A stretch of 64,000 nucleotides of DNA from Clostridia bacterium. GTDB taxonomy: Bacteria > Bacillota > Clostridia > TANB77 > CAG-508. The notes beneath the pieces were generated by a model, which saw only the letters and a list, made by a program, of their open reading frames with translations, was not told the origin of the DNA and made no database searches. Positions 970-2,480 of this stretch are shown here, piece after piece (position 1 is the stretch's first letter; the number at the start of each line of letters is the position of its first letter). Both the position numbers and the translations under genes were made by a program. The stretch spans positions 8,750-72,749 of the forward strand of contig JAFRCC010000022.1 in assembly GCA_017404545.1 (NCBI GenBank), read 5' to 3'.

Positions 970-2031
970 TTATAAACTTATATCTTTAGCATACTCATAT
1001 GAAATAATTTCATTTTCTTCTGTATTCTTGTAGGCTTTTTCTTGATGCATTTTATCAACAATTAATTTCGTACTCATTCCAATAACCATATCTAAGACTT
1101 TATCTATTACATTTTTTTCATTTTTTGCTAGTGGTTCAACATCATATTTATCATTTGTAAATATATGACAACCTTCTGTAATAGTTCCATCATCAGCTTC
1201 AAATTCTTCTACTTTGCTACTAATAGATTTTAATCTAGTTATTTGGTTGTAACCGATTGGTAATGCTCCCATTGGTTTATGCTCATATACAAGACCAGTT
1301 AGTGATTCATTATACTTTTTAAAGTATAGAAAGTCACAATACCATAATATCTTCATCAGTTTAACCTTATATAAATTATCTACTTTATTTGCAATATAAT
1401 TTACTATGCCCTCAAGTTTCCTAATGCTGATTTTTTTATAACCACATTTAACGTTATCTTTATCATAGCTCATATACTTAGCTAGTAGCTCTTGTTCATT
1501 TAGGTAATACAAACTAAACTCAGCAACCATATCTTTTATCTTATTCTCTATCTCTTTACATCTATCATTAGATACCTTTTTTGATAACTTATCTTTATTT
1601 TCGTTATAGCAATCTAATAAGAACAAGCTGTTACTATCTATTGTTTTTAAGATCTTATCATGGCTATAATCTTGTATCTGTTTTGTTTCATATCTTGTTA
1701 TAGTTATTTCTCCCCATCCAAGTATTAGGGAAAGCTCAGCTTGATTTAAGTTATATTTTTTTCTAATAGCTTTTATTTGATTTGATGTTAATAAATTATT
1801 CTTTTTTCTGTATTCATCTCTTGCTCTTAATAAATTAGAATCTAATAGCTCTCCAGAGACAAATTCATTGTCTTCGTTTGCATTAGTACATAAATAATAC
1901 TCTTCTTGATATGTTACTTCTTCATCTTTAATAATAGCAACTTGCTTTCTTGTTTTTAATTGAACCTCATGATTTTGTCCGCATATTGGACAATCTAAAA
2001 TAACACTACTTTTCATAATACCACCTCTCAT
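970..2031 (-). CDS. Antitoxin-like fusion: MqsA/YgiT-type zinc finger, XRE-HTH, and a C-terminal region read as Panacea (DUF4065)-like
   Basis: N-terminal CPICG...C zinc-finger pattern. HTH region LTSNQIKAIRKKYNLNQAELSLILGWGEITITRYE. C-terminal KLMKILWYCDF...TGLVYEHKPMGALPIGY resembles the KLQKLLYYAQAW...GPVVPEVY hallmark seen in the Panacea protein at 5822..6307. Directly follows the toxin-like gene 2034..2447. Confidence 0.55.
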   Translation of the reverse strand: MRGGIMKSSVILDCPICGQNHEVQLKTRKQVAIIKDEEVTYQEEYYLCTNANEDNEFVSGELLDSNLLRARDEYRKKNNLLTSNQIKAIRKKYNLNQAELSLILGWGEITITRYETKQIQDYSHDKILKTIDSNSLFLLDCYNENKDKLSKKVSNDRCKEIENKIKDMVAEFSLYYLNEQELLAKYMSYDKDNVKCGYKKISIRKLEGIVNYIANKVDNLYKVKLMKILWYCDFLYFKKYNESLTGLVYEHKPMGALPIGYNQITRLKSISSKVEEFEADDGTITEGCHIFTNDKYDVEPLAKNEKNVIDKVLDMVIGMSTKLIVDKMHQEKAYKNTEENEIISYEYAKDISL

Positions 2032-2033
2032 AC

Positions 2034-2447
2034 CTATTTATATGGAAAGAACATAACCTTATATTTAGCATGGTGAAAAGAAAAACAAAAAATCTTACGA
2101 TTCTTAACACTTCTAATCTTCACTTTAATATAAATATCTTTCCCCTGAATCCTTTTATTAAAAACATATAAATATGGTAAATTTGCATCCTTTCTATCTA
2201 TTCCAGTTTCTACATAATCTACTACTTTTAATTTTTTTATTTCGTTTAAAACATCATTTCTATCGTAATTTAAACTTAACATTGTATTCATAGTTGAGTA
2301 CTTATCATTTGGTTCATTTTTAATAAGCAAATCAAAATCATATAAAGTATTAAAATTTGGTGAATTTGTAATTGTATTAATTGTATCTAAAAATTGCTCT
2401 ACATCATCTTTTGTGGATTGAAACTTATCCTTCATTTGCATCACCAT
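2034..2447 (-). CDS. Putative MqsR/RelE-like type II toxin
   Basis: 137 aa. C-terminus GKDIYIKVKIRSVKNRKIFCFSFHH resembles the E. coli MqsR C-terminus GQVYLKITVIHDVLIVSFKEK. Gene order is toxin first, zinc-finger/HTH antitoxin second, as in mqsRA. The true start is probably the MKDKF Met. Confidence 0.4.
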   Translation of the reverse strand: MVMQMKDKFQSTKDDVEQFLDTINTITNSPNFNTLYDFDLLIKNEPNDKYSTMNTMLSLNYDRNDVLNEIKKLKVVDYVETGIDRKDANLPYLYVFNKRIQGKDIYIKVKIRSVKNRKIFCFSFHHAKYKVMFFPYK

Positions 2448-2451
2448 TTAC

Positions 2452-2480
2452 AATATACTATCAATTGATAGTTTTGTCAA
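2452..2480 (-). promoter_or_regulatory. Sigma-A-like promoter with embedded palindromic operator for the MqsR/MqsA-like operon
   Basis: On the minus strand: TTGACA, then 17 nt, then TATATT, immediately upstream of the ORF. The spacer holds a perfect 16-bp palindrome ACTATCAATTGATAGT (2457-2472), a typical autoregulation site for an HTH antitoxin. Confidence 0.5.

Follow-up and report, generated by a model that had tools for sequence, protein, structure and literature searches.

What does a pair of adjoining genes in the genome of a Clostridia bacterium encode, and how might its expression be controlled? The pair is read on the minus strand at positions 970-2480 of a 64,000-nucleotide stretch of contig JAFRCC010000022.1 (the window, with a GC content of ~28%), and a first-pass annotation had proposed that it comprises an MqsR-like toxin and an antitoxin in which an MqsA-type zinc-finger and helix-turn-helix (HTH) head is fused to a DUF4065/Panacea-like domain, a combination that it called a notable architecture. 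We find that the gene pair is an intact toxin-antitoxin (TA) module. The architecture, however, is not novel, because Ernits et al. (2023, PNAS, PMC10440598) validated MqsR:PanA pairs whose antitoxins have the same order of zinc-binding domain (ZBD), HTH and Panacea domain; it is already published, experimentally dissected and annotated by NCBI, and the module is an ordinary member of the MqsR:PanA class. We consider it very likely that it works as a type II TA system of this class, with an MqsR-fold toxin and a ZBD-HTH-Panacea antitoxin in the roles set out below. Its features, in window coordinates, are the following (open reading frame, ORF; amino acids, aa).

2452-2480, minus strand: operon promoter, with -35 element TTGACA at 2480-2475, a 17-nt spacer and -10 element TATATT at 2457-2452
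2457-2472: operator palindrome ACTATCAATTGATAGT, with the conserved core CTATCAATTGATAG at 2458-2471, a predicted site for the antitoxin HTH dimer
2034-2447, minus strand: MqsR-like toxin gene, longest ORF 137 aa, likely start ATG 2435 giving 133 aa
970-2031, minus strand: antitoxin gene of PanA type, longest ORF 353 aa, likely start ATG 2016 giving 348 aa
1630-1992, minus strand: MqsA-like head of the antitoxin, a ZBD followed by an XRE-type HTH with recognition motif GE-ITITRYE
1027-1359, minus strand: C-terminal Panacea (SocA_Panacea/DUF4065) domain, PF13274, residues 225-335 of the 353-aa ORF
2562-2589, minus strand: intrinsic-terminator-like hairpin, a 12-pair stem followed by a T run, upstream of the promoter and between it and the preceding gene

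The toxin gene comes first and the antitoxin gene second, as had been described, with 2 nt separating the two longest ORFs. Both of these ORFs are probably over-extended, and we place the likely starts at ATG 2435 for the toxin and ATG 2016 for the antitoxin. The shorter starts are favoured because AGAGGTGG lies 5' of ATG 2016, because the toxin ATG at 2447 falls just 4 nt past the -10 hexamer and the alignments of relatives begin at the Met at 2435 (antitoxin relatives likewise align from the 348-aa start), and because gene-caller products are 133 and 348 aa on a contig that carries an identical copy of the 155-aa neighbouring gene discussed below (L092), with a 133-aa toxin also called on a 95% identical contig (L001). 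The promoter is sigma-70-like, and its TTGACA-17-TATATT arrangement (11/12 consensus positions) is the top consensus promoter match within 400-3400. The hairpin at 2562-2589 would act as an insulator between the preceding gene and the module. It forms the end of a GC-richer element of ~60 nt (2562-2615, minus strand) with a counterpart in L001 (1068-1128, plus strand); the element lies upstream of the TA promoter in both contigs and appears conserved by eye, and the flanking genes differ.

In the antitoxin, the MqsA-type ZBD and HTH sit N-terminal to the Panacea domain. Residues 14-134 of the 353-aa ORF match TIGR03830 (NCBIfam, type II TA antitoxin, MqsA family) at 87.2 bits against a cut-off of 61.8, and Pfam MqsA_antitoxin PF15731 scores barely above its own cut-off (30.3 bits against 30). 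At the other end, SocA_Panacea PF13274 reaches 64.8 bits (gathering score 25.7), and the peptide strings earlier quoted for this domain are present. A profile built from 34 antitoxin relatives matches full-length E. coli MqsA (3gn5_A) with an E-value of 7.2e-5, aligning profile positions 11-136 with chain residues 2-126, so that the match spans the ZBD as well as the HTH. The AlphaFold2 (AF2) model of the antitoxin is confident (pLDDT 89.0): it starts with a domain rich in beta strands, continues through the helical HTH and linker region and closes with an alpha/beta domain at the C-terminus.

The zinc site itself departs from that of the MqsA family, which has four cysteines (CxxC ... CxxC). 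In the window antitoxin the motif reads C9-x2-C12-x3-H16 ... C43 and has no fourth Cys (residues 9-46, window ~1879-1992); C9, C12, H16 and C43 (348-aa numbering) are among the invariant residues of the antitoxins, as is the HTH motif G-x2-T-x2-RYE. The pattern CxxCxxxH is present in 117 of the 120 top relatives; of these 117, just 11 retain the second CxxC found in E. coli MqsA, and 106 are missing the fourth Cys. Because the fourth cysteine is absent in most relatives and the His is invariant, the family zinc site may be Cys3His, with H16 as a putative ligand.

The toxin matches the MqsR / RelE-superfamily fold. Pfam MqsR_toxin PF15723 recognises it with an E-value of 1.3e-4, and 19 of 28 toxin relatives match the same model at E<0.01. 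A Tenacibaculum plasmid protein that NCBI names 'MqsR family toxin' aligns with the toxin family by hhalign at 99% probability, and its gene adjoins one for a DUF4065 protein built of the same three parts. Aligning the family directly with E. coli MqsR by hhalign gave a sensible alignment of low probability (12.5%), which served for residue mapping only. The MqsR query sequence was 100% identical to that in 3HI2, a structure in which MqsR is bound by the N-terminal domain of MqsA and the zinc-binding-domain contact is seen. K56, Q68, Y81 and K96 of MqsR were reportedly proposed as catalytic in a 2009 paper on the E. coli MqsR structure. Y81 aligns with Y102, an invariant residue of the toxin family (133-aa numbering), and for Q68 no placement was obtained. 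The window toxin has its full length, and all invariant residues of the family are retained in it (Y74, E76, F92, Y102, K104, C117, S119, F120, H121 and P131).

The pairing of the two genes is conserved. Antitoxin relatives with the same domains number >500, mostly of 343-350 aa, and some carry the NCBI name 'type II TA system antitoxin MqsA family protein'. In GTDB species genomes, chiefly of Clostridia and Lachnospiraceae, 505 loci could be confirmed, and for the toxin family HMMER returned 534 clusters when run in full over 1.84 billion representatives. Among 87 fetched loci, all upstream ORFs of at least 80 aa that abut the antitoxin gene (62/62) are toxin homologues. Toxin genes nonetheless often decay while the antitoxin persists: where the upstream sequence sufficed for a judgement (81 loci), an intact toxin was seen at 50 loci, fragments or frameshifts at 21 and no toxin at 10, with the antitoxin intact throughout. 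The operator is kept in loci that have a lost or fragmented toxin and is sometimes doubled there (as at 2370-2420 in L004/L005), and the most widespread antitoxin cluster (P0075, 279 collection blocks) is an orphan antitoxin.

The control of the module is addressed by the palindrome, which had been placed between the -35 and the -10 and is found there: ACTATCAATTGATAGT, a perfect palindrome of 16 bp, occupies the 17-nt spacer and extends over the first T of the -10 element. We rejected it as a stand-alone statistical signal, as 16-bp palindromes are expected in so AT-rich a window, which at 28% GC holds six perfect palindromes of at least 16 bp where Markov-1 simulations give 3.0 on average; an exact-pattern search of the 64-kb window likewise showed no enrichment of this one. 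Its significance comes from its position and its conservation in relatives. With up to 2 mismatches allowed, the 14-bp core CTATCAATTGATAG precedes the module, mostly as an exact copy, at 77 of the 80 related loci; the rest of these loci, 386,664 nt in all, holds 2 matches. The antitoxins of the loci that share the core are just 40-50% identical to the window antitoxin. The core lies within or adjoining the -35 and -10 elements, and the arrangement TTGACA, palindrome, TATAAT is repeated in many related loci. Two layouts recur. One is that of the window, with TTGACA, 2-3 nt, the palindrome and then TATAAT; in the other, common in Lachnospiraceae, one copy occupies the spacer and a second lies 19-20 bp downstream, directly after the -10. 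A related sequence, GTATCAATTGATAC, is found upstream of a 26%-identical module on a Bacillus thuringiensis plasmid.

The strong comparative signal supports the prediction that the palindrome is an autoregulation operator, because the core sits in or beside the core promoter, and the combination of an invariant HTH recognition motif with an invariant operator would fit autorepression by promoter occlusion. No further copies of the operator were found in the 64-kb window, and we therefore see no regulon there. The operator string did not occur in the literature searched, and 'palindrom' is absent from the text of PMC10440598; with no earlier description found, the family-wide consensus CTATCAATTGATAG is a modest new detail. 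Elsewhere in the window, another perfect 16-bp palindrome, AATGCTAATTAGCATT, lies at 207-222 among several ATTAGCA repeats (intergenic, 180-310) and may mark another operator region.

How the parts might work together can be read from published members of the class. Kurata et al. (2022, PMC8832971) found an MqsR-like domain to be the commonest recognisable toxin domain beside Panacea antitoxins (n=90), counted 343 PanAs that carry HTH domains and cited a 2013 prediction that DUF4065 is an alternative MqsR antitoxin. Ernits et al. (PMC10440598) validated MqsR(D2):PanA pairs, with antitoxins listed as 'Panacea; ZBD (MqsA); HTH', from Bacillus fungorum (WP_099686063.1 / WP_099686064.1) and Lactobacillus rossiae (WP_017263062.1 / WP_017263061.1). 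In the B. fungorum pair the ZBD or ZBD-HTH neutralises the toxin and Panacea or HTH-Panacea fails to, a Y97 mutant of the toxin is non-toxic, and Panacea is proposed to be a sensor (PMC10440598). By analogy with that homologue, the ~133-aa MqsR-fold toxin of the window would act as an endoribonuclease, and the ZBD of the antitoxin would bind it and keep the ribonuclease (RNase) inactive. HTH-mediated antitoxin dimers would occupy the palindrome in the core promoter, repressing the operon, and loss or remodelling of the antitoxin would free the RNase. The Panacea domain would be dispensable for neutralisation; its role would most likely be regulatory, or it may sense when to release the toxin.

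Several observations weigh against this account, most of them on the side of the toxin. The proposed MqsR likeness held for the fold and for the E-value, and fell short on the Pfam score, which at 22.7 bits is under the gathering threshold of 26.2. AF2 modelled the toxin with moderate confidence (pLDDT 77.6), a single model of the five being confident and far above the other four. Foldseek found no match to this model in the PDB, and a profile of 12 toxin-family sequences searched against PDB sequences did not reach MqsR or return anything relevant. The chemistry of the toxin may also differ from that of MqsR, because K56 aligns with the invariant E76 and K96 with the invariant H121 (motif C-x-SFH). 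Finally, since the antitoxin of the B. thuringiensis plasmid relative is ~26% identical to that of the window and its toxin aligns weakly, we can only infer that the domain dissection made in B. fungorum carries over to this module.

The surroundings of the module bear on what it is for. It lies in a defence island, near a type II-A CRISPR-Cas locus, in which the following features were found.

2654-3320, minus strand: PDC-M03 remnants, a 104-aa ORF corresponding to the C-terminal ~85 residues of PDC-M03A and a 124-aa ORF corresponding to the N-terminal half of PDC-M03B
3697-4716, minus strand: HTH-M78 protein (ImmA/IrrE-like peptidase; PADLOC PD-Lambda-2_B, RmrA)
5399-6307, minus strand: second Panacea module, a stand-alone PanA of 161 aa (PF13274, 85 bits), then a 140-aa MAG6450-family protein
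6472-13127: type II-A CRISPR-Cas, with an array at 6472-7302 (~13 repeats, 66-nt period), Csn2 at 7360-8043, Cas1 at 8350-9222 and Cas9 at 9207-13127
13762-14844, minus strand: second HTH-M78 protein (PADLOC PD-Lambda-2_B, RmrA)
15881-17056, minus strand: KAP-family P-loop NTPase, similar to PADLOC PDC-S20, PifA and QatA
19060-19779, minus strand: HipA_C-like ORF (weak)
20257-21222, minus strand: DUF2806 protein

The ORFs at 2654-3320 each match a part only of the candidate defence system PDC-M03 and are probably remnants of a truncated system directly upstream of the TA promoter; the matched N-terminal half of PDC-M03B resembles the HipA N-terminal domain. The first HTH-M78 protein is preceded by two overlapping small ORFs (4728-4889 and 4804-4992, minus strand) suggestive of a small toxin gene with a frameshift. 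The 140-aa protein of the second Panacea module also matches the C-terminus of PADLOC NsnC, and in L001 a 153-aa Panacea gene followed by a 140-aa gene stands beside the MqsR:PanA module. The KAP NTPase, the HipA_C-like ORF and the DUF2806 protein extend the island.

This setting invites the suggestion that the module is primarily an abortive-infection system, in which Panacea would sense a phage cue and release the MqsR-like RNase, with addiction or stress roles being secondary. The second PanA module, CRISPR-Cas, the PDC-M03 remnants, the HTH-M78 proteins and the KAP NTPase all favour it, as do a close relative of the module with Cas12a and Cas4 as its immediate neighbours, full-length relatives on four faecal phage contigs (others are on Clostridium plasmids) and the Panacea sensor proposed by Ernits et al. 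(PMC10440598). However, no PADLOC model matches either the toxin or the antitoxin, no defence phenotype of MqsR:PanA is reported in PMC10440598 or the related literature examined, and a place in an island is circumstantial evidence. We therefore regard a primary role in phage defence as possible and on balance unlikely; it would in any case add to the MqsR:PanA mechanism described above and not exclude it.

A broader and more speculative proposal, which we think rather improbable, is that the members of the family cross-talk as a network, in which PanA proteins that are orphan or resident would repress or neutralise incoming MqsR:PanA modules on phages and plasmids, providing anti-addiction and immunity, and Panacea would be the infection sensor that makes the resident module an abortive-infection RNase next to CRISPR-Cas. 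It is suggested because the invariant operator spans antitoxins only 40-50% identical and because many intact orphans keep it.

It could also be supposed that Panacea is the neutraliser, as in stand-alone PanA, and that the MqsA-like head is a DNA-binding regulator only. Stand-alone Panacea domains do directly neutralise diverse toxins (PMC8832971, PMC10440598), and such a PanA module lies 3.4 kb away. But the tested ZBD-HTH-Panacea antitoxin neutralises by its ZBD alone, and not by Panacea or HTH-Panacea (PMC10440598); the ZBD is strongly conserved in the window family, with its three cysteines and its histidine invariant; and in E. coli it is the ZBD of MqsA that contacts MqsR (summarised in PMC10440598; 3hi2). 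We consider a neutralising Panacea domain very unlikely here. Also very unlikely is that the pair is a decaying remnant with an inactive toxin and an antitoxin that is mainly an orphan transcription factor, for although toxin decay is common in the family and antitoxin and operator persist through it, the window toxin ORF is full length with every invariant residue and the promoter is near consensus.

Downstream of the two genes lie a further ORF and a structured RNA, the latter with copies elsewhere.

473-940, minus strand: orf155, 155 aa, 29 nt downstream of the antitoxin gene, with its own ribosome-binding site and no terminator between
338-439, minus strand: skipping-rope-like RNA with terminator, closing the toxin/antitoxin/orf155 string on its 3' side (RF02924, 35.1 bits, E 2e-4, under the gathering score of 36.7)
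5282-5381, minus strand: skipping-rope RNA (RF02924, 57.5 bits)
2892-2989 of L001, plus strand: skipping-rope RNA directly after the antitoxin gene (RF02924, 40.2 bits)

We rejected orf155 as a conserved third component of the module. It has no Pfam, NCBIfam or PADLOC match; its product is 100% identical to a protein of an NCBI metagenome-assembled genome (MAG) labelled 'Clostridia bacterium', to which the window corresponds. Its relatives form two protein clusters only, both directly after a 348-aa MqsA-Panacea gene (L089, 1246-1713; L092, 2009-2476), with the toxin/antitoxin/orf155 trio of L089 being followed by Cas12a and Cas4. Neither L001 nor any of the other loci for which called genes were listed carries it. 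Possibly, then, orf155 is a lineage-specific, co-transcribed passenger outside the conserved module.

The skipping-rope RNA (RF02924) is an orphan structured RNA. The copy at 338-439 aligns well with those at 5282-5381 and in L001; the two window copies are the only RF02924 matches in the 64 kb, and each of the three ends a gene string that contains a Panacea antitoxin. Sensitive-mode searches did not find the RNA in the 11 next-closest MqsR:PanA loci, nor did gathering-mode searches in 20 loci; gathering mode also missed the real L001 copy that sensitive mode detected. We rejected it as a feature of the TA family; because it is absent from more distant relatives, we regard it as probably a feature of the window lineage or of the island. 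The ~60-nt element upstream of the TA promoter is not a further copy of it.

As a discovery the module carries little weight, its architecture being known, dissected and routinely annotated by NCBI. Its value is, first, as a clean and intact MqsR:PanA example from a low-GC Clostridia genome. Second, the operator consensus, whether in the -35/-10 spacer or duplicated around the -10, makes autoregulation of MqsR:PanA directly testable. Third, toxin loss with antitoxin retention, together with the defence-island site beside CRISPR-Cas, offers pointers to the role of Panacea when it is not the neutraliser.

Among known systems, the B. fungorum and L. rossiae MqsR(D2):PanA pairs have the same antitoxin order, ZBD (MqsA type)-HTH-Panacea, and the same MqsR-like toxin partner; this likeness is one of architecture, measured identity referring only to the B. 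thuringiensis plasmid relative (~26%). Compared with E. coli MqsR/MqsA (YgiU/YgiT; PDB 3HI2, 3GN5, 3O9X), the window antitoxin has ~215 additional residues (a helical linker and Panacea) and the window toxin is ~35 residues longer. Unlike MqsA, the window family is without the fourth zinc cysteine and has an invariant His after the first CxxC, and in place of MqsR K56 and K96 it has Glu and His. The E. coli MqsA operator is ACCT-N-AGGT, and the window operator differs from it in sequence.

The type VI system SocAB of Caulobacter, in which SocA is a ClpXP adaptor for SocB, has the Panacea/DUF4065 fold family in common with the window module, and the Pfam name derives from SocA. We rejected membership of that system, since the SocA_antitoxin equivalog NF047745 gave no match to the window antitoxin at E-values up to 1 (the neighbouring stand-alone PanA matches it, far under the cut-off) and since the toxin has the RNase fold of MqsR and is not SocB. 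Stand-alone PanA/PanT systems (PMC8832971), represented here by the neighbouring pair at 5399-6307, differ in that PanA is without a ZBD or HTH, its gene precedes that of the toxin and neutralisation is by Panacea itself, and the neighbour's toxin, of the MAG6450 family, is unrelated to that of the module. The two nevertheless have in common a Panacea domain, a two-gene TA organisation and a place in the same defence island.

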